Positions 10,612 through 24,716 of a stretch of 50,860 bases of DNA are shown piece by piece (within the stretch, counting starts at the first letter, position 1; every line of letters starts with the position of its first letter). The notes beneath the pieces were generated by a model. That model was not told the origin of the DNA, made no database searches, and worked only from the letters and a program-made list of their open reading frames with translations. Source of the DNA: a virus (taxonomy: Duplodnaviria; Caudoviricetes); IMG/VR virus record IMGVR_UViG_3300047408_000275, positions 1 through 50,860 of that record, one strand, 5' to 3'. Both the position numbers and the translations under genes were made by a program.

Positions 10612-11313
10612 ATGAAAAATTTAGCATTGATAGCTATTGCATTGGCATTTCTTTCCGGTTCTGTGCAGTCAAATACCTTGAACAATTATTTAGATTTTTA
10701 CATTGGTGCTGATGGTCAGCTTCGAGTAACGAAATTTAAGAAAGGATTCGGTAATAATTTATTGAAGAAAACATATCCGCAGGGGAATATTTATGCTGGC
10801 GTCATGCTGAGTGAAAATATTGGGGCGGAAGCGGGTTATGAATCGACAACTGAGAGAGCGTGTGATGCTACGTTATGGGATGGTGAGTGTTGCGCAGGAC
10901 GACATGTGCCGCCTGCTGCTGGGGTTGCGACATTTAAAACTAAGTTGCGGATAAAGGGACCACATGTAGGCTTGATTTTATTTCATCCGTTAAAAGATTC
11001 TCGTATTAGTCTTTTGGGGTCTGTAGGCTTAAGTTTTGTTAAGGGCACAGCAGAAATTAAAACAACGAGACTTGGTTTCCCGCCTATTGAAGGCGCTACA
11101 CGCTGCCTTAGCAAGCATAAAGAAGCTTTACGATTTATGGGGGGCGCCCAATATTTAACTCGGAGCGGATTAGGCTTTAGAGGAACCATGAGCTTTATTA
11201 AGACGCGAAAGATAGTGTTAAAGAAAAGCGATGACAATAGCAGCATTCAAATCCCAAGAATTAAGCTAAGAGATAGCGTTGTTTATGGGCTTGGAGCCTT
11301 TTGGGTATTCTAG
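10612..11313 (+). CDS. Outer-membrane beta-barrel protein (OmpA-TM/Ail-Lom-like)
   Basis: Signal peptide, FYIGA and IGAEAGYE strands, and C-terminal VYGLGAFWVF ending in Phe (BAM signal). Confidence 0.85.
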   Translation: MKNLALIAIALAFLSGSVQSNTLNNYLDFYIGADGQLRVTKFKKGFGNNLLKKTYPQGNIYAGVMLSENIGAEAGYESTTERACDATLWDGECCAGRHVPPAAGVATFKTKLRIKGPHVGLILFHPLKDSRISLLGSVGLSFVKGTAEIKTTRLGFPPIEGATRCLSKHKEALRFMGGAQYLTRSGLGFRGTMSFIKTRKIVLKKSDDNSSIQIPRIKLRDSVVYGLGAFWVF

Positions 11314-16884: not shown

Positions 16885-17210
16885 GGTCTCTGCAAAATGT
16901 AAAATTAATTTTGTTTGGGCACGCACTTGAATTCGTGAACTCAGACGAAAGAGCTCGCCTTATCATTTATCTTCGCATTAATAAAAAAAGAAGTTACGAA
17001 ATTTCTGAGGAATGCCATAGGTTATGGGATGGTGATTGGGGCAATCCCGAATTAAATTATGATATGGGAGAAGCCCTGTACAAAGCCGCTGAAGCGTTTT
17101 TAACAAATGATGTTCCGACTTCGTGGAATCATATAGGGAAAGCTCTCGAAGAGGCAATATACAAGAATGATCAACAAGATGAAAAATGGTGGGAGGGAAT
17201 GCTAAAATGA
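16881..17210 (+). CDS. Hypothetical protein, paralog of 14560-14994
   Basis: DGDWG motif and ATGA coupling. Confidence 0.7.
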   Translation: MRSLQNVKLILFGHALEFVNSDERARLIIYLRINKKRSYEISEECHRLWDGDWGNPELNYDMGEALYKAAEAFLTNDVPTSWNHIGKALEEAIYKNDQQDEKWWEGMLK

Positions 17211-18202
17211 CTAGAAAGCTCGCTTCAATACGTATGATAGGGTCAATCTCTCCAATTGAAGGTGCTGACAATATAGAACTTGCTCATGTTGATGGCTGGC
17301 AATGTGTTGTTAAGAAAGGCGAGTTCATCGCGGGACAGCTTTGTGTTTATTTTGAGATAGACTCATTTTTGCCTATCCGACCAGAAAAGGAAGGGTTTAG
17401 GCTTCGGACGATTAAGCTGAGGGGGAAGATATCTCAGGGGTTAGCGATTCCTTTTCATTCTTTCCCCGGTATTGAATGTGATAAGGCTGACATTCTTGGA
17501 AGTGATGTTACAGAGCTTCTTGGAGTCTTAAAATACGATCCGCCTATCCCAGCTCAGCTTGCGGGAATCTGCAAAGGGAATTTCCCTTCTTTCATTAGAA
17601 AGATAGACCAAGAGCACGTGCAGAACCTATGGCATAAAATTAAAGATTGTGAAGAGCATTTTGAAGTTACGATTAAACTTGATGGGTCAAGTTGTACCTA
17701 TTACCTTAACGATGGAATATTTGGCGTATGCTCTCGAAACTTGGAGCTTAAAGAAGATGAGAATAATACCTTCTGGAAGATAGCTAAAAGGCACGATATT
17801 GAGTCTATTTTGAGAAATTACGGTAAAAATATAGCATTACAGGGAGAGGTCATAGGTGAAGGTATTCAAGGTAACCCGGAGAAGATAAAAGGTCAGGAAT
17901 TCTATTTGTTTGATATATGGGATATTGATAGGCAACAATATTTAGATCCGGAAGAACGAGCAGTATTGTGGAGCAAATGTCTTAAAGACAGAGGAGTTTG
18001 TTGGTGTCCGTATGCTGAAGAGTTTAAGATGCTTGCGCCAAGATTGTCTCAATTTAAAGACATTAATGAGCTTCTTGATGCTGCAAATGGAAAGTCATTG
18101 AATTCTGGAATGCGAGAAGGAATTGTTTTTAAGTCTATGGAAATTGGCTCCGGCTTAAGATTTAAGGTTATATCTAATGAGTATCTTTTAAAAGGATATT
18201 AA
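17207..18202 (+). CDS. ATP-dependent RNA ligase, DRB0094/Rnl5 family
   Basis: N-terminal RKLASI...IEGADNIE OB domain, then motifs KLDGSS, CSRN, QGE, LFDI, EGIVFK and FKVIS. Confidence 0.93.
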   Translation: MTRKLASIRMIGSISPIEGADNIELAHVDGWQCVVKKGEFIAGQLCVYFEIDSFLPIRPEKEGFRLRTIKLRGKISQGLAIPFHSFPGIECDKADILGSDVTELLGVLKYDPPIPAQLAGICKGNFPSFIRKIDQEHVQNLWHKIKDCEEHFEVTIKLDGSSCTYYLNDGIFGVCSRNLELKEDENNTFWKIAKRHDIESILRNYGKNIALQGEVIGEGIQGNPEKIKGQEFYLFDIWDIDRQQYLDPEERAVLWSKCLKDRGVCWCPYAEEFKMLAPRLSQFKDINELLDAANGKSLNSGMREGIVFKSMEIGSGLRFKVISNEYLLKGY

Positions 18203-18265
18203 TTGCGCCAGACCAGTCAATAGAATATATTAAATATTTGGGAATTCAATAGAAGGAGACATAGC

Positions 18266-18703
18266 ATGAAAGATAAAATAGTAGCAGGCCTAATGCTTTT
18301 TTCTCAAGCAGCTCAAGCAGTAACAACTATAGACAAGAACAACTATCGCCAGCATTTATGCGATTCTGGTTTATTTATACCAGTTGTTAGAGAGGGTACG
18401 ACTCCTGCCGAAAATTGGTGGGAAAAAGGATTTATTAATCAAGATTACCAAGTATATTGTGGAACTAAAGCAAACTACGAGCGAGCTGTTGAGGATAGCA
18501 ATAAGAGGGGGGTTAATCATTATCCTTGTCTTGGAAACCAGAAGGATATGATTACAAAAGATGCTTGTGTAGAAAAGCATGGCATTGAATATGCCCAAAC
18601 TTGTGAACGATTAAAGGAAGATAGAGAAAAATATCGGGCTGCATGGAATTCAATGATGCCAGTCACATCATGTAACAATATGAGACGTATGAGACGAAGA
18701 TAG
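18266..18703 (+). CDS. Secreted Cys-rich protein (moron-like)
   Basis: Signal peptide ending AQA, six Cys, and a terminator downstream. Confidence 0.7.
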   Translation: MKDKIVAGLMLFSQAAQAVTTIDKNNYRQHLCDSGLFIPVVREGTTPAENWWEKGFINQDYQVYCGTKANYERAVEDSNKRGVNHYPCLGNQKDMITKDACVEKHGIEYAQTCERLKEDREKYRAAWNSMMPVTSCNNMRRMRRR

Positions 18704-18726
18704 TCAACAGTCATTGGTCATGTGTT

Positions 18727-18764
18727 GCCCTATATGTTCCTTTCCTGGCGTATAGGGCTTTTTT
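18727..18764 (+). terminator. Rho-independent terminator
   Basis: GCCCTATATG/CGTATAGGGC stem followed by a T run. Confidence 0.8.
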
Positions 18765-18810
18765 GTTAGCGGTTTGTGATATGATGTTATTCGTGTAGAG
18801 GAGAATTAAT

Positions 18811-19566
18811 ATGGAAATTAGTATAATCAGTATTTTCGCATTGTCGTCATTAGCGACAGCAGTAATGCTTGGAGCATGTTATTTATTTATCTCGCGTGAT
18901 TCAAAAGAGATAGAGCGACTGAACATCAGAAATGCGGAGCTGTTTTTCGATAATTCTATGCTTAATGCTCAAGTTGTTGAGCTAAAGAATGCGTTAGATA
19001 AAAGCATTGTCAAATGTAAGCTAATTGAAGATAAGGATTACTTTTTTAATCGCTTTATCTCACCAGCTTATGTAAAGTTAGATTCTGATAAACAGTTATT
19101 ATGCAAATCGCTCGGTGTTACCAAGGAGGAGTACGATAATGAAATGCGGAGGTATGAAGGCCTAGAAGAAACGCTTTTAACTTATCGTGTTCATGACTTG
19201 CTTTTAGAGTCTGGATATCTTTACTCCAAGAAGTTTAAGAATAGATTTTCAACTGGTGAATGCGACAACTGTAATCAGAAGATAAATAAGCTTATTGAAG
19301 AGATTCAGGATGTAACGCAATCGGAATGTCATTGTAAGGAAAAATTTAATGGGGAATTTTCTGTCGAAGATATTTCGAAATCAGACGCCCTGTCTAACGA
19401 AACTTTTGGTCTGCTGATAAAGAACGCGAAATCGAAGAATATCGGGCGAAGGAAAAGTGAAGATATTTCTGACGCAGAAGCACTGGCTGACGCAATTAGC
19501 AAGGGGATTAAACTGAAGATAAAGGCATCTGCTAAAAGCCAGGATAGCTATAGTTTCGACTTTTAA
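18811..19566 (+). CDS. Membrane-anchored hypothetical protein
   Basis: N-terminal TM, coiled coil and CxxC/CxC motifs. Confidence 0.7.
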   Translation: MEISIISIFALSSLATAVMLGACYLFISRDSKEIERLNIRNAELFFDNSMLNAQVVELKNALDKSIVKCKLIEDKDYFFNRFISPAYVKLDSDKQLLCKSLGVTKEEYDNEMRRYEGLEETLLTYRVHDLLLESGYLYSKKFKNRFSTGECDNCNQKINKLIEEIQDVTQSECHCKEKFNGEFSVEDISKSDALSNETFGLLIKNAKSKNIGRRKSEDISDAEALADAISKGIKLKIKASAKSQDSYSFDF

Positions 19567-19633
19567 ATAACATGGGAATAGACATGGTTAAAATAAATGG
19601 TGTCTATAAGTATGCTTTTTGTGACTCAAGTTT

Positions 19634-20131
19634 ATGGTCGCTTACATGAGCGATAATAGAAATCTAAGGATGTTGGAATTATTTCTTTCTCGGAAAGATG
19701 GAGCCCCAGAAGACGAATATCGTAAATGTCTTGCAGAATTTGAGGATATGATAAGAAAGCATGGATATTATAAGCTTGTGTGTAATTTCGATGTATCACA
19801 ATCTCTGACTGAGCCACCGATGTCACCTACGCCAATGCCAGTCATAAAATTATATCCAATTGAAAAAGACCGCGAGTCATTTTCTTTTAAATATATAAAA
19901 ATAACAGAGGAGGTTCTCTCAGATGATGATATTGAACAAAAACGTCAAGAATTTGAAAAACTTGATAAGATAAAATGTTCAGAGGATTTGGCTATGGCTA
20001 AGAAAATTACTTGCGATAGAAGAATTGAAGGTCGTGGACATTATTTCAAATATGAAAACCGCTATGAAAGCCACCAGGATTGTTGCGCATTCTGTGGAAA
20101 ATATGTGTGCGATATTATAAATGAATCTTGA
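19634..20131 (+). CDS. Hypothetical protein with C-terminal Cys/His motif
   Basis: 165 aa ORF overlapping the next gene. Confidence 0.65.
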   Translation: MVAYMSDNRNLRMLELFLSRKDGAPEDEYRKCLAEFEDMIRKHGYYKLVCNFDVSQSLTEPPMSPTPMPVIKLYPIEKDRESFSFKYIKITEEVLSDDDIEQKRQEFEKLDKIKCSEDLAMAKKITCDRRIEGRGHYFKYENRYESHQDCCAFCGKYVCDIINES

Positions 20132-20849
20132 GCCAGAAGACTTAAAAATAGACATATTCGGCTACGGCCTTCCATCAGGAGAAAGCTATTATAGGGTAAC
20201 TCATATACCTACTGGGAAGATAGGCTGCTGCGACCAGCATTGTATTCGTCATTTTGAAATGAAAGACATATCAGACTCAGATAGAAAAGAATGTGCAATC
20301 CAAAGGTTGTTTAGTTTACTTAGAAACCAGCATGAATCTTATAAATCTGTTGCTCATGATATCTGCAATCATATGGCGGAGCGCGATATCGAGGATATCG
20401 GCATAAATGACGCCATAAATCAATATATCGAACATTATGATAATGCGTGGGAATACTTCAAAACAAACAATAAATTTAATCACCCTATAATTCCAAAATT
20501 CTTGCTTTCTAGAGAAATCGTGGAGCGCTTCCATGGAGAGGCGGCAGCAAGAAAAGCTTTCGATGATTGGGTGTATGAGTTTAAGAATAGAAAGCCATCG
20601 AGTATAGAAGAGAAAAATCTTTCGCATCATGAGGACAAGATTCCATTAAAGAACCTTCTTAAGAATTGTGGCCTGGTGAGCAGTACGTCAGAAGCATTGC
20701 GAATGATAAAACAAAATGGTGTTAAGATAGATGATATTATAGCATCAGAAGATGTTCCTATAGCGGCTGACAATGTATATAGGGTTTTCCAGGTCGGTAA
20801 AAAACGTTTTTTAAAGGTAAGAGCGTCAAATAGCAAGGGGTTTGCGTGA
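20121..20849 (+). CDS. Fusion: degenerate RF-1-like domain plus TyrRS C-terminal helical/S4 domain
   Basis: N-terminus EDLKID....RVTHIPTG. C-terminus REIVERFHG..AA...GLVSSTSEALRMIKQNGVKID...FQVGKKRF. Confidence 0.8.
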   Translation: MNLEPEDLKIDIFGYGLPSGESYYRVTHIPTGKIGCCDQHCIRHFEMKDISDSDRKECAIQRLFSLLRNQHESYKSVAHDICNHMAERDIEDIGINDAINQYIEHYDNAWEYFKTNNKFNHPIIPKFLLSREIVERFHGEAAARKAFDDWVYEFKNRKPSSIEEKNLSHHEDKIPLKNLLKNCGLVSSTSEALRMIKQNGVKIDDIIASEDVPIAADNVYRVFQVGKKRFLKVRASNSKGFA

Positions 20850-21295
20850 TGACTGATTACATATTTTATAAAGGTGATCCCCATGTGTTTTCAAACTTTC
20901 ACATCGCGCCTATACATATAGATGGTAAGGTTTGGGCTACATCTGAGCATTATTTTCAGGCGATGAAATTTCATGGTTATGATGATGAGCATAAAGAGAA
21001 AATAAGATTAGCCGAGACTACTGGTAAAGCATATAGGTTAGCATGGGAAAAAAAGATACCCTGCTCTAACTGGGATGAAATAAGAAATGATGTTATGCGA
21101 AAGGCTTTGCTGAATAAATTTGGTCAACATGTTGAGCTTGAAAAAATACTTCTTGATACTGGAGAAAAGAATATAGTACAGCGTTGCAGTAAGGATAAGT
21201 ACTGGGGCGATGGATATCCCGGTAAGGGGGAGAATATGTTAGGAAAGCTTTTGATGGAAACTAGGGAAAGGATTCGACGATATGAAAGCATTTGA
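20846..21295 (+). CDS. NADAR (YbiA-like) family hydrolase
   Basis: FSNF, SEHYFQAMKF, KF.QH..L...LL.TG, D.YWG and G.N.LG.LLM..R motifs. Confidence 0.93.
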   Translation: MMTDYIFYKGDPHVFSNFHIAPIHIDGKVWATSEHYFQAMKFHGYDDEHKEKIRLAETTGKAYRLAWEKKIPCSNWDEIRNDVMRKALLNKFGQHVELEKILLDTGEKNIVQRCSKDKYWGDGYPGKGENMLGKLLMETRERIRRYESI

Positions 21296-21488
21296 TAATC
21301 AGGATCAATTCGATTCAGAGATGGCCTTTGTGCCTAAGCATAAGTTTTTCCCAACGATACAAGCGTGGCGTGACAGTATGGTTAAGCGTATGGCGTTCCT
21401 GAAGGTATTGGATAAGTCGGCCACTGCTTCAGGTGTGTTTTTGGTTACAGATTCTTTTGCGGCTGATTTTTTAGAGAGGAATGATTAA
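21282..21488 (+). CDS. Hypothetical protein
   Basis: 68 aa, overlapping the NADAR stop. Confidence 0.55.
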   Translation: MKAFDNQDQFDSEMAFVPKHKFFPTIQAWRDSMVKRMAFLKVLDKSATASGVFLVTDSFAADFLERND

Positions 21489-21549
21489 CAATGATTTTAG
21501 TTATTCTTATCGTGTCTGCTCTAATGATATATTTTAAGGACAATGATTG

Positions 21550-21675
21550 ATGGGTATCAGAGAAAAATGTGACGTTTGTGAAGGATATACTAACGCCATT
21601 TATAATGCGTTTATTGTTGGCGAAGAATGTCCCGATTGTGGGGCTTGTTACGAAATAATTAGAAAGCTTCGCTAA
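21550..21675 (+). CDS. Small zinc-finger protein (not in ORF track)
   Basis: MGIREKCDVC...ECPDCG, 41 aa. Confidence 0.55.
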   Translation: MGIREKCDVCEGYTNAIYNAFIVGEECPDCGACYEIIRKLR

Positions 21676-21695
21676 AATTGTCGATTAATTCTTGC

Positions 21696-22010
21696 TTATC
21701 CATCTAATCCAAATCCATATCTGCTTAAGTTTAACCCAAAATCGTCTACTTGTTTTTGACCACTATCGATTAAGTTGATTTCTTTAACGCATTCATAAAA
21801 GCACCTTAAGCAGTAATTCCCAATGCCTGTCTCTACCCATGTCTCATCATTTTCTCTATATGTTCCGTCATATACTTGCGTTGCACATGTTTTGCAATAT
21901 ATCTTCTCAGATACGAGCGGATGGTTGTCAGGAAGCGGGCTATTAAATTCGCCTGTGGATAAATCACTATTCGATATATCGCTGTGTATCTTAGGTTCTT
22001 GCTTGCTCAC
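21696..22010 (-). CDS. Zn-finger-like hypothetical protein
   Basis: YCKTC ... WVETG.GNYCLRCF. Confidence 0.65.
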   Translation of the reverse strand: MSKQEPKIHSDISNSDLSTGEFNSPLPDNHPLVSEKIYCKTCATQVYDGTYRENDETWVETGIGNYCLRCFYECVKEINLIDSGQKQVDDFGLNLSRYGFGLDG

Positions 22011-22037
22011 CTAATCCAAATCCATGCGTAAGCTTTC

Positions 22038-22322
22038 TTAGTCATACATATTCTCACTTGTGCCAAAAAGAAGAGCGTTAATAATTTTCTTTTGAATTCT
22101 ATCGTCATCTTCTTGCGACCATGATTTATTTAAAAAATCCTCTAGTAGACTCTTAGTTTTCTTTGTTTCTTCCGAGTCTTCTTCTTTTGATTCTATCTTA
22201 AATATAGGATTCCTTTCTTCGTATGACTTTAGCTTTCCATCCGGGCTATAAAAATCCGATACTGGAGCAGAATCCATCGCTTTGTTGTGCCATTTTCGGA
22301 ATTCTTCTAAAATGTCATCCAC
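22038..22322 (-). CDS. Hypothetical protein
   Basis: AGGAG RBS and GTG start. Confidence 0.65.
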   Translation of the reverse strand: MDDILEEFRKWHNKAMDSAPVSDFYSPDGKLKSYEERNPIFKIESKEEDSEETKKTKSLLEDFLNKSWSQEDDDRIQKKIINALLFGTSENMYD

Positions 22323-22333
22323 GCTTGTCTCCT

Positions 22334-22885
22334 TTAGTCTAAAGCCATATCTACTTCTAATCCAAAATAATCTGTTCTACTTGTTTTTGACTGATGAGGT
22401 TGGTACCAATAACAATTATCGCGGCTATATCCTGCTTGTGAATATATCCTTCTCAGCATACATGTTTCATTAGGCCTTCGTCCCATGTCTTCCAAGAAAT
22501 TACCATATCCATTCATATCATCCGTCCATCGTTCGCATATATGGAGCCCATTCTTGTTAGCCATATACTTTGCGTGAATCCAAGCTTTATTCTCTGGCTC
22601 TCCAACTACGCTTTTGCCATACTTAAATCTTCCTTGCTTATTAGGGTTGTGGCCAAAAGACAAGCACCCGCAGGATTTAGTATGCCCTCGGACAATATCG
22701 TTAACGTCTACAATTTTTGAGCCGCCACACTCGCATAGTATTTTTACCATTAGCCTACTTGATTTGTTAGAGCCTTTTCGCCCTGCTAGCTCGGATATCG
22801 TGACTTTTCCAAAGACTTGACCAACATACTTTTTGGAAAACCTGTTTAGACTTGTGCCAGAATATGGTATAAGTTCGCTTGTCAT
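22334..22885 (-). CDS. HNH-like (homing-type) endonuclease, probably degenerate
   Basis: FG..T...CECG...G.TKSCGC...ICERW...F..DMG.RP. The usual SLDRIDN..Y..NC.W site reads MLRRIYS..Y..NCYW. Confidence 0.75.
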   Translation of the reverse strand: MTSELIPYSGTSLNRFSKKYVGQVFGKVTISELAGRKGSNKSSRLMVKILCECGGSKIVDVNDIVRGHTKSCGCLSFGHNPNKQGRFKYGKSVVGEPENKAWIHAKYMANKNGLHICERWTDDMNGYGNFLEDMGRRPNETCMLRRIYSQAGYSRDNCYWYQPHQSKTSRTDYFGLEVDMALD

Positions 22886-22986
22886 TTCATGCTTCCCAGT
22901 ATAGCCTCAGCTAAATGATGCTGAGACAAGCCGACACTATAATCGTATTAGTGGCGGTTTACAATACTATGAAGTCGTATATTGAT

Positions 22987-23062
22987 TCCCCCTTAGCTCA
23001 GCTGGTAGAGCACGCGGTTGTTACCCACTAGGTCGGTGGTTCGAGTCCATCAGGGGGAGCCA
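22987..23062 (+). tRNA. tRNA-Asn(GTT) with encoded CCA and a mismatched anticodon stem
   Basis: TCCCCCT/AGGGGGA acceptor, GCTC/GAGC D arm, GGTGG-TTCGAGT-CCATC T arm, G73 and CCA. Anticodon loop TTGTTAC. Confidence 0.9.
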
Positions 23063-23114: not shown

Positions 23115-24716
23115 ATGGAATGTACTCAAACAGATATCTTCAAGGAATTATTATTAAGGCAACAAGCTTCAGATTCCCTGTACGAATTCATAAAACAGGC
23201 ATGGCCTGAGATAGAGAAAGGCACGCCATTCGTAGGCGGCTGGTATATTCAAGCGCTCTGCGAGCACCTAGAAGCCTTATATCGGGGTGATATTAAGAAC
23301 CTTTTAGTAAACGTTCCACCACGTAGCACCAAGACCACAACCTGCTCTGCTATGTTTCCGGCCTGGGTTTGGATTAACAAACCATCTACGCAATTCCTGT
23401 GTCTATCGCATTCCTTCGACCTAGCCATGGAGGCATCTCTAAAACATCGAGATATCATTACATCTCAATGGTATTCGCTCAGATGGGGGGATAGGTTCCA
23501 GCTAAAAATTGACCAGAACGAGAAGACCAAGTTTGCCAATGATAAGAGCGGCTACAGAAGCTCTACCAGCATGTTATCGCGCACAACTGGTAAGGGTGCG
23601 AACATGCTTATCGTTGATGATCCGAATAACGCCCTTGAGTCTGAAACAGATAGGGAATCTATCAACAAGCGATGGGATGCTGTGCTGTCTACCCGTCTTA
23701 ATGACATGAGTAAGGATACTCGTTTGGTTATCCAGCAAAGAACAGACTCAAATGACCTTACTGGCCATATATTGAATAGTGATGAAGCAGATGAATGGAC
23801 AAAATTCATCATTCCTATGGAGTTCGAAGAGAAGCGTCGATGCAAAACTATCATACTACCGTCGACTGATGGCAAGAAATGGCGAGACCCTAGAACGATA
23901 GAAAAAGAGTCCCTATGTCCTATTAGGTTTAATGAAAAGAACATAGAACGTCTTAAAAAGCGTCTTGGCTCCAATTACTTGATAGCGGGTCAGCTTCAGC
24001 AACGGCCGGCGCCCGAAGAAGGCGGGATGTTCAAGAAATCTTGGTTCCAGTGGTGGAAGAAAGAGAAGCCGCCTAATGTCTTCCAGATTATACAATCCTG
24101 GGATACGGCATTTAAGCGAGAAGATAAGCGAAAAGCCAATCAGAAGATATCCTATTCTGCCTGTACGACCTGGGGTCTATTCGATGATGATTTCGGTGTC
24201 ACAAACCTGGTTTTACTGAATCTTTGGAGAGACCGAGTTGAGTTCCCTGAGCTTAGGTCGATAGCACAGAAACTTGCAGAAGATTATCGTAATAATGGTT
24301 CTGTTAATATCGTTCCAGATGGAAAGCATGTGCCCGATATGATTCTCATAGAAGCAAAGGCTACTGGAGACCCGTTGATGCAGGAGCTTAGAAGAGCTGG
24401 TATCCAGACAACCATGTATGATCCAACTCTGGATGGCGACAAGATTAGGCGCGCAAGTCTCATAACACATATCGTTCAGTCAGGAAGGGTATGGTTACCC
24501 GCGAGACCGCCAAATTTCGACCGTCTTACGTCTTTTGCACATTTGTTCATGGAAAGCTGTGCTAACTTCCCAAACGATGAAGAATCGAAGGATATCGTTG
24601 ATACGTTCTCTCAAGTTGTTAGAAAGGTCACGAGAGGTGGTCTTGTTAGACATCCTACAGACCTTAAGGAAAAGCCAAGGAGCCAAGCACCGATTATTCT
24701 TTACGGAAATCGATGA
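23115..24716 (+). CDS. terL: Terminase large subunit
   Basis: NVPPRSTKT (Walker A variant), LIVDDP (Walker B), QQR.P, QSWDTA and DIVD nuclease motifs. Confidence 0.95.
   Translation: MECTQTDIFKELLLRQQASDSLYEFIKQAWPEIEKGTPFVGGWYIQALCEHLEALYRGDIKNLLVNVPPRSTKTTTCSAMFPAWVWINKPSTQFLCLSHSFDLAMEASLKHRDIITSQWYSLRWGDRFQLKIDQNEKTKFANDKSGYRSSTSMLSRTTGKGANMLIVDDPNNALESETDRESINKRWDAVLSTRLNDMSKDTRLVIQQRTDSNDLTGHILNSDEADEWTKFIIPMEFEEKRRCKTIILPSTDGKKWRDPRTIEKESLCPIRFNEKNIERLKKRLGSNYLIAGQLQQRPAPEEGGMFKKSWFQWWKKEKPPNVFQIIQSWDTAFKREDKRKANQKISYSACTTWGLFDDDFGVTNLVLLNLWRDRVEFPELRSIAQKLAEDYRNNGSVNIVPDGKHVPDMILIEAKATGDPLMQELRRAGIQTTMYDPTLDGDKIRRASLITHIVQSGRVWLPARPPNFDRLTSFAHLFMESCANFPNDEESKDIVDTFSQVVRKVTRGGLVRHPTDLKEKPRSQAPIILYGNR

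Follow-up and report, generated by a model that had tools for sequence, protein, structure and literature searches.

What use does a phage have for a protein made from parts of two translation factors, neither of which has kept the part that does the chemistry? The question is raised by one gene of a virus of the Caudoviricetes, IMG/VR record IMGVR_UViG_3300047408_000275, whose 50,860 bp were analysed as a whole (the window); the window is a complete virus record with direct terminal repeats. The original prediction placed the gene at 20121-20849 and described its product as a non-catalytic chimera, a class I release factor (RF) domain without the GGQ motif followed by the tRNA-binding tail of tyrosyl-tRNA synthetase (TyrRS). 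That observation is confirmed, down to the exact coordinates, the plus strand and the length of 242 amino acids (aa), and the interpretation that went with it is partly supported. The protein is a fusion of two RNA-directed modules from which the catalytic parts of both parents have been removed, the motifs for either parent's catalysis being missing. Its architecture, built from known kinds of domain, is unreported, and several phage 'release factors' are shown here to be without the catalytic motif. We propose, at a probability of about 0.45, that the product is a non-hydrolytic accessory protein predicted to bind tRNA-Tyr and to shield this tRNA or help repair it.

A release-factor domain 3 without GGQ

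The N-terminal domain is a genuine RF domain 3 from which GGQ is genuinely gone, an identity that follows because the profile of its family and its fold both match release factors. The single sequence gives a weak signal: phmmer against the PDB aligns residues 3-49 with RF1 at E 0.29 and RF2 at E ~0.6, the phrog_20323 'RF-1 domain' profile matches the N-terminus at E 0.0037, and Pfam RF-1 (PF00472) has no match to the fusion protein at E<=1 and none in the whole record at E<=10. An exhaustive phmmer search of 1.84 billion representatives with residues 1-90 returned 11 non-self matches at E<=1e-3, seven of which are small relatives from metagenome contigs, here called mini-RFs (P0124, 69 aa; P0128, 70; P0126, 71; P0125, 77; P0129, 90; P0123, 109; P0121, 155). 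P0122, P0127, P0130 and P0131, which are long and internally repetitive and have 0/4 core motifs, were dropped as relatives. The motifs common to the family are DLRIDIF, RITHxPTG, SCDxxCxxH and R(R/K)KCA, and the start of the fusion protein fits the family N-terminus (MNLEPEDL versus MKLNPEDL). P0124-P0126 score 16 bits against PF00472, below its gathering score of 35 bits. The family profile A3, in contrast to the single sequence, matches 44 PDB sequences at E<=10, 41 with E<1e-3; 43 of the 44 are class I release factors, the best being RF2 (E 4.6e-11) and RF1 (E 1.4e-9). No ArfB/ICT1 chain is among these 44 matches, and PrfH appears at E 0.23.

The fold agrees with the profile, and the class I RF domain first proposed from motifs is borne out by both. 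An AlphaFold2 (AF2) model of the domain, built from the A3 alignment without any canonical RF, has a predicted local distance difference test score (pLDDT) of 78 and places strands at residues 8-14, 22-28 and 33-37 and a helix at 52-68. Among the matches listed by Foldseek for this model, 44 of 45 rows are release factors (TMq up to 0.71), and the ESM Atlas model finds an RF1 cluster at a template modelling score (TM) of 0.72. The VIA fold scan, which is independent of Foldseek, has as its top three RF1 (Z 7.8, root mean square deviation (rmsd) 2.8, 66 aligned), mtRF1 (Z 7.4) and RF1 again (Z 7.0), with PrfH (Z 6.5) and mtRF-R (Z 5.9) in lower rows. An Atlas feature search gave no usable match, either for this domain or for the N-terminus of the related protein P0003 described below.

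These scans also bear on the idea that the domain works outside translation, either making up for the lost TyrRS dimer interface as an oligomerisation or scaffold module, or acting as a nucleotide sponge in the manner of Acb4 on a fold like that of double-stranded RNA-binding domains (dsRBDs). Acb4 (9e4w) does appear in the VIA scan (Z 5.7, rmsd 3.1, 65 aligned), and a passage of PMC11722364 notes the fold likeness of Acb4 to release factors; moreover, P0121 carries the domain in tandem, P0003 has a different N-terminus on the same tail, as expected for interchangeable accessory modules, and the genome already has an Acb2/Tad1-like sponge. However, dsRBD-like folds at Z 5-6, Acb4 included, lie within the background range of the scan, no Acb4 chain is among the 44 profile matches, and the sequence signal is specifically that of RFs. 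The strong conservation of DLxID and RITHxPTG speaks for an RF-type contact surface having been retained, and we regard a scaffold or sponge as quite improbable.

In the alignment of the A3 profile with RF2, a six-residue gap lies exactly over 'GAGGQH' of the RF, the single-sequence alignment with PDB release factors has the gap there too, and the short loop GYGLPSGE stands in place of the GGQ loop. The spacing from DLxID to RITH is 12-13 residues in the family versus 19 in canonical RFs, the latter figure being a hand count on printed RF fragments. The loop lacks GGQ in all nine domain copies (P0121 counted twice), as the prediction of a shortened, GGQ-less loop had it; the stray GGQ of P0126 is in its C-terminal tail, outside the domain. 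The C-x3-C-x2-H motif plus a later Cys is kept in eight of the nine copies, and in the fusion protein C37, C41, H44 and C58 could form a zinc site. Compared with domain 3 of RF1/RF2 (PF00472), the fusion protein thus shares the fold, profile-level homology and the DLRID, RITHxPTG and following-helix motifs, but has no GGQ, a loop six residues shorter, an extra Cys/His cluster and a score below the Pfam gathering score. It also lacks domain 1 and domains 2/4, PCRF (the stop-codon-reading domains 2/4) having no match in it. With the GGQ finger deleted, peptidyl-tRNA hydrolysis would not be expected of this domain.

Small RF-domain genes are common in cultured phages, as tblastn with P0125 and with p0148 of phage ZZ1 reveals. 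We call these cultured-phage mini-RFs type A and the short-loop Cys/His family of the fusion type B; P0125 (type B) and phrog_20323 are related at E 1.8e-7. ZZ1 p0148 matches 118 phage records, 67 of them Acinetobacter phages, at least five of the listed rows being annotated full-length RF1/RF2 genes or a bacterial record. The genes are annotated as 'RF-1 domain peptide chain release factor', 'peptide chain release factor 1/2' or 'putative peptidyl-tRNA hydrolase'. None of the seven that were translated (from ZZ1, Konradin, Acj9, Pseudomonas phages 73 and LPPA15 and two Vibrio phages) contains GGQ, and five of the seven have a Trp, usually as 'WV', at roughly the position of the missing GGQ. 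In three of them the length of the type-A loop could be measured (18 residues); the two of these that carry the Trp come close to the canonical length. Annotation as release factor or peptidyl-tRNA hydrolase is doubtful because GGQ is missing, and to judge from their sequences the 'release factor' label is very probably wrong for these seven genes. The bacterial-type RF families set out by Burroughs and Aravind in a section of PMC6514570 are RF1, RF2, ArfB and PrfH, with the catalytic Gln retained in ArfB and PrfH; we found no description of a GGQ-less bacterial-type RF domain in that section or in the literature searched. Genes of the phrog_20323 type (ZZ1 p0148, Pseudomonas phage 73 ORF037) resemble the N-terminal domain as ~70-aa GGQ-less RF domains 3, but have neither the C-x3-C-x2-H...C cluster nor a fused TyrRS tail.

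Three Acinetobacter T4-like phages were examined, and each has its GGQ-less mini-RF gene within a tRNA gene array or next to it; given the kinship of the three, they amount to a single observation. Their RF domains, without GGQ, are of ~76-78 aa (locus coordinates 2498-2728 in ZZ1, 1483-1719 in Konradin and 1501-1731 in Acj9). The genes of Pseudomonas phage 73 (ORF037, locus 2501-2995) and LPPA15 (locus 1495-1860) add a C-terminal extension of 60-100 aa to a GGQ-less RF domain, a further instance of this domain being joined to other sequence. The best two rows of the P0125 search against phages were set aside as bacterial RF2/RF1 on unverified 'phage' scaffolds. MT839396.1 and MT836128.1, faecal 'Bacteriophage sp.' scaffolds with full-length RF2/RF1 and housekeeping genes, are probably bacterial contigs.

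The TyrRS-derived tail and the joining of the modules

The N-terminal domain ends at about residue 68, and TyrRS-derived sequence then follows. In BLASTP against the proteobacterial TyrRS P0007, residues 72-236 are colinear with TyrRS 219-396 (35% identity, E 3e-26). Where some 120 C-terminal residues had originally been assigned to TyrRS, the helical and S4 match therefore stands and the homology is longer. TyrRS 6byq matches residues 117-234 at E 4.9e-7 (phmmer against the PDB), tyrS TIGR00234 matches over profile positions 292-404 at E 1.7e-13 with 50.4 bits (cut-off 113.8), and S4 (PF01479) scores 19.9 bits (cut-off 22.8). Among the 120 homologs listed, 117 are full-length TyrRS of 276-409 aa with ~45% identity over the last 46% of the query, and the other three are the fusion protein itself, P0002 (156 aa) and P0003 (262 aa). 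Across the further scans, the TyrRS tails closest to it came from gammaproteobacteria (47% identity; 45% for SAR86).

The tail would be a remnant of a proteobacterial-type TyrRS, its ~170 C-terminal residues, left after loss of the whole Rossmann domain and comprising the S4-like domain and, before it, the last part of the helical anticodon-binding domain. Like bacterial TyrRS (the proteobacterial ~400-aa type and 1h3e), it is colinear from the KMSKS region to the C-terminus and has the helical plus S4-like fold with the G34-reading Asp position kept. It differs in that the Rossmann domain is gone, and with it HIGH, tyrosine and ATP binding, acceptor-stem binding and the dimer interface. The absence of a HIGH/KMSKS catalytic domain had been part of the prediction and holds: the TyrRS catalytic domain PF00579 has no match in the fusion protein, TyrRS homology begins only at TyrRS residue 219, and KMSKS (P0007 223-227) aligns, in a low-identity stretch, with SVAHD (76-80), in which none of the five residues is kept. 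Relative to P0007, 15 residues are deleted after W110-F113.

The full-length AF2 model (pLDDT 87.2, predicted TM-score (pTM) 0.53) has two confident domains joined by a low-confidence linker at residues 71-90; pLDDT is 91-98 across most of residues 131-240, with one block at 85. The best Foldseek matches of this model are Thermus thermophilus TyrRS-tRNATyr complexes (1h3e, 9sfq), at E 1e-7 to 3e-7 over 100-105 columns with rmsd 2.2-3.4 Å. RF1 and RF2 follow at E ~4e-3, and ribosomal S4 proteins and the S4 domains of RluF and RsuA at E ~1e-2.

In TyrRS, the helical and S4-like part is what grips tRNA-Tyr, at its anticodon stem-loop and its long variable arm. D107 of the fusion protein aligns with P0007 D250, which in turn aligns with Asp259 of the T. 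thermophilus enzyme (1h3e), and is invariant in the three phage-type tails (P0001-P0003). These tails are 64-68% identical, and the columns invariant between them and five TyrRS include K126, R136, R194, Q198 and K227. Since the TyrRS-invariant columns are kept, the tail looks constrained rather than decaying, which settles the concern over neutral decay that accompanied the prediction. A section of PMC1934993 assigns recognition of the long variable arm in bacterial TyrRS to the C-terminal domain, the reading of G34 to Asp259 and that of pseudouridine 35 (psi35) to Asp423. Because key residues are conserved, the tail most likely still binds tRNA-Tyr.

Both modules recur apart from each other. 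The N-terminal domain is also found as stand-alone proteins of ~70 aa, and P0121 is a tandem duplication of a type-B mini-RF with the Cys/His cluster in both copies. P0002 is the TyrRS tail alone, and a separate gene may lie upstream of it. P0003 shares only its residues 111-262 with the fusion protein (65% identity) and has an unrelated N-terminus for which domain-library and Atlas searches found no family. Because the N-terminal domain and the tail each occur elsewhere alone or otherwise combined, the gene looks like a shuffle of modules of which only the tail is traceable to proteobacterial TyrRS. The original description, a chimera of two host translation factors, is accordingly to be corrected, both halves being phage modules known from other proteins: the N-terminal domain belongs to an already existing GGQ-less family, and the tail is a module of its own, found alone or behind another N-terminus. 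P0123 and P0125, different type-B mini-RF proteins each on a 7,048-bp contig, may be paralogs from one phage genome. IMG/VR scans with the A2 profile, P0125 and P0124 found no relative, and a word-index search with residues 1-90 found the fusion protein alone and, when made for shorter proteins, none. An IMG/VR scan with A4 gave nine loci, all ordinary GGQ-bearing RF2/PrfH-like genes and hence not mini-RF relatives.

That the gene is an artefact or a relic, either an assembly chimera or a decaying, functionless phage-borne tyrS fragment, is suggested by the single copy of the fusion that was found, in a sole sequencing run that may itself be that of the source sample. The Logan contig of this run (38,727 bp, depth 20.5), the product of a second assembler but probably of the same source sample, spans 19600-21300 with 0 differences and no alternative joint; the fusion is probably not an assembly chimera. 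Against a relic there are also the uninterrupted frame in a complete genome with terminal repeats, the conservation of the same residues by relatives of both halves, the confident models of both domains and the fit of the start to the family N-terminus. We hold this explanation to be highly improbable. No RNA dataset holding the fusion stretch is listed, one run in all holding the stretch.

Candidate roles of the fusion protein

In the role that we favour, the tail would clamp tRNA-Tyr by its anticodon and variable arms, and the mini-RF domain, standing in place of the catalytic domain, would supply a second contact with RNA or the ribosome without chemistry. The design logic of RF1/RF2, ArfB and PrfH, in which a recognition module directs RF domain 3, would be copied, with a tRNA as the thing recognised. 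Like ArfB (YaeJ)/ICT1 and PrfH, the fusion protein joins a stand-alone RF domain 3, by way of a linker, to a module deciding the site of action. However, ArfB and PrfH keep the catalytic Gln and recognise the ribosome (an empty mRNA channel or a damaged decoding centre), whereas the fusion protein has no Gln loop, and its partner module is a predicted tRNA-Tyr binder derived from TyrRS rather than a basic tail. A passage of PMC6514570 pairs PrfH with the RtcB ligase in RNA repair. A further parallel is the LysRS KTSC domain protein of jumbo phages, in which the RNA-binding part of a synthetase stands alone in a phage and which a section of PMC7824862 proposes to support translation or ribosome rescue. 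It comes from another synthetase and has another fold, and that section describes no RF-type fusion.

The purpose would be to keep tRNA-Tyr usable while the host attacks tRNAs, by shielding its anticodon arm or by holding the cut tRNA for repair. Shielding or repair against host defence is the most speculative step. It is suggested by the existence of tRNA-Tyr-degrading defences and by the neighbouring genes: Retron-Eco7 degrades tRNA-Tyr, and phages evade it using their own tRNAs (passages of PMC11555353 and PMC12673091). The fusion gene is probably coupled in translation to a gene for a NADAR-domain protein, and an RNA ligase gene and an Acb2/Tad1-like sponge gene lie in the same arm of the genome, which is why a protective role comes to mind. 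This region is an accessory arm with counter-defence content, and the genomic context favours a tRNA-directed role in a counter-defence and RNA-repair arm. Part of PMC9503650 treats NADAR and RNA ligases side by side as components of RNA repair in phages, and the jumbo-phage survey groups tRNAs, ligases, peptidyl-tRNA hydrolases and the LysRS-derived RNA-binding domain as 'RNA repair / ribosome rescue' (in the section of PMC7824862 cited above).

Several observations weigh against a tRNA-Tyr role of this kind. The equation of D107 with Asp259 rests on a low-identity stretch of a pairwise alignment, and Asp423, the psi35 reader, is K228 here and likewise Lys in the proteobacterial TyrRS P0007; anticodon reading is therefore not transferable residue for residue. 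A tRNA seated on the ribosome cannot be bound at its anticodon in the manner of TyrRS, so that an N-terminal domain active at the peptidyl-transferase centre would leave the two modules unable to share one ribosome-bound tRNA. The phage has a gene for tRNA-Asn only and none for tRNA-Tyr, and adjacency of mini-RF genes to tRNA arrays is absent at the other four loci examined. A hairpin (18727-18758) separates the RNA ligase from the fusion unit, promoter and terminator counts are otherwise no higher than in shuffles, this hairpin alone being convincing, and scans with Pfam, PHROGs and NCBIfam recognised no end-healing kinase or phosphatase nearby. Finally, the search for the same architecture in other phages that was suggested with the prediction came back empty: a second copy of the exact fusion was not found in viral, metagenome or genome collections. 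The metagenome-contig scan (best 80 of 139 relatives) and the species-genome scan (best 80 of 340) gave ordinary TyrRS only, and among INPHARED phages nothing matches 18000-23000 at the DNA level, or the fusion protein or P0121 in tblastn.

The main rival is a ribosome-directed, non-hydrolytic plug. The mini-RF domain would dock on the A-site side of the 50S peptidyl-transferase centre without hydrolysis, the S4-like tail would bind rRNA or P-site tRNA as in Hsp15 and RqcP, and termination or rescue would be blocked or tuned, or 50S-peptidyl-tRNA complexes held. Hsp15 and RqcP are S4-family factors that bind rRNA or P-site tRNA. The strongest relatives of the N-terminal domain are ribosome-bound RFs, and the tail fold is also like those of ribosomal S4, RluF and RsuA, as the Foldseek matches given above indicate. 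A passage of PMC3950681 reports that the tail of ArfB is required for ribosome binding of its GGQ domain, in keeping with the need of stand-alone GGQ domains for a second, anchoring module, and inactive RF-type ribosome plugs have been proposed, in a section of PMC6514570, for the archaeo-eukaryotic-type RF superfamily. On the other hand, the tail is derived specifically from TyrRS (45-47% identity) and has kept the helical anticodon part and D107, for which a generic rRNA binder of the S4 kind would have no need; the loop that would reach the peptidyl-transferase centre is six residues shorter, and no Hsp15 or RqcP chain is among the PDB sequence matches. On balance a ribosome modulator is rather doubtful.

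A different use of the tail would be as a competitor that sequesters tRNA-Tyr from the host TyrRS or the ribosome, slowing host translation or altering the decoding of the UAN codon box; near-cognate reading of UAA/UAG would be favoured or disfavoured, and the RF-like domain would interfere with RF1/RF2. The UAN box holds the Tyr codons UAU/UAC and the stops UAA/UAG. Both modules indeed relate to this box, and loss of the dimerising catalytic domain makes tRNA binding without charging possible. Yet the phage needs Tyr decoding itself, its genome has no suppressor tRNA, its stop usage is ordinary (TAA 21, TGA 11 and TAG 6 in long plus-strand frames), and there is no in-frame-stop signature, the 11 same-frame neighbouring plus-strand ORFs being about what chance gives under tight packing. 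With no signal in stop usage or same-frame ORFs, readthrough or recoding was rejected, and a tRNA-Tyr competitor seems quite unlikely.

To return to the favoured tRNA-Tyr-binding role, a bolder version of it extends to the whole mini-RF group. GGQ-less mini-RFs would be widespread, misannotated, non-hydrolytic binders of tRNA ends or the peptidyl-transferase centre, one of which the TyrRS tail here aims at tRNA-Tyr, giving a 'tRNA-Tyr guard'. This extension we consider unlikely. If true, the guard would protect from, or rescue after, tRNA-Tyr-directed immune nucleases such as the retron-associated PtuAB, and would be the protein counterpart of carrying decoy or replacement tRNA genes. The fusion serves as a 'Rosetta stone' in that it ties the GGQ-less phage mini-RF domain physically to a tRNA-binding module. 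Should the predicted binding of tRNA-Tyr be true, phages would be reusing, as targeting devices, those parts of host translation enzymes that have no catalytic role, and the fusion protein would be a testable candidate for countering tRNA-cleaving defences.

Surroundings of the fusion gene

The coordinates of the fusion gene, its parts and the neighbouring features are collected in Table 1. The NADAR gene starts with GTG, 4 nt before the end of the fusion stop codon, and no obvious Shine-Dalgarno sequence is seen before the fusion ATG. Because their ends overlap, the 165-aa ORF, the fusion gene and the NADAR gene are probably a translationally coupled block.

Table 1. Position of the fusion gene, its domains and features of its surroundings in the window.
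Feature	Coordinates	Strand	Basis or remark
Acb2/Tad1 hairpin domain ORF, 102 aa	13306-13614	+	PF24729 E 1.4e-10, 41.7 bits, cut-off 27
DraRnl-type ATP-dependent RNA ligase (Deinococcus type)	17186..18202	+	TIGR02306 193.6 bits, cut-off 151
Terminator-like hairpin, 12 bp	18727-18758		between ligase and fusion unit
Upstream ORF, 165 aa	19634..20131	+	end overlaps fusion ATG by 11 nt
Fusion gene, whole	20121..20849	+	242 aa plus stop, ATG start, uninterrupted frame
N-terminal domain, residues 1-68, GGQ-less class I RF domain 3 (mini-RF, type B)	20121..20324	+	profile and fold
Short loop GYGLPSGE, residues 14-21, in place of GGQ loop	20160..20183	+	alignment gap, loop spacing
Cys/His cluster C37, C41, H44, C58, residues 36-58	20226..20294	+	C-x3-C-x2-H...C
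Linker, residues 69-94, low confidence	20325..20402	+	pLDDT ~51 for residues 71-90
Helical region from TyrRS alpha-helical anticodon-binding domain, residues 95-156	20403..20588	+	includes D107 (20439-20441)
S4-like C-terminal domain of TyrRS, residues 157-242	20589..20846	+	carries STSEALRMIKQNGVKID and QVGKKRF
NADAR-domain gene (ADP-ribose-processing family)	20846..21295	+	PF08719 E 2.8e-32; TIGR02464 125 bits

The gene order is RNA ligase, hairpin, two ORFs without known family, fusion gene, NADAR gene and two small ORFs. The ligase, a PHA02142 N-terminal oligonucleotide-binding (OB) domain plus an RNA_ligase nucleotidyltransferase domain, is encoded 1.9 kb upstream of the fusion gene on the same strand. 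The ORFs 18266-18703, 18811-19566 and 21282-21488, like the 165-aa ORF, have no family in Pfam, PHROGs or NCBIfam. The 102-aa ORF at the head of Table 1 is likely, from its domain match, to encode a cyclic-nucleotide sponge against defence of the CBASS or Thoeris type.

The genome as a whole has terminase, portal, tail and virion genes, a replication initiator, RNase H and one tRNA-Asn(GTT). This tRNA is the sole RNA family found in the genome by Rfam, and a role as a CYT-18-like group I intron cofactor was rejected, Rfam finding no intron. Next to one another lie genes for an HNH endonuclease (22334-22885, minus strand), the tRNA-Asn(GTT) (22987-23062, plus strand) and the large terminase subunit (23115-24716, plus strand). 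The last gene of the block, a 42-aa ORF (21547-21675, plus strand), has two CxxC pairs and a weak match to LysW-type zinc-ribbon carriers (E 4.9e-4, far below the cut-off). Further upstream, a 233-aa ORF (10612-11313, plus strand) has a weak outer-membrane beta-barrel match (PF13505, E 9e-6, just below the cut-off), a kind of protein that is unusual for a phage early region.

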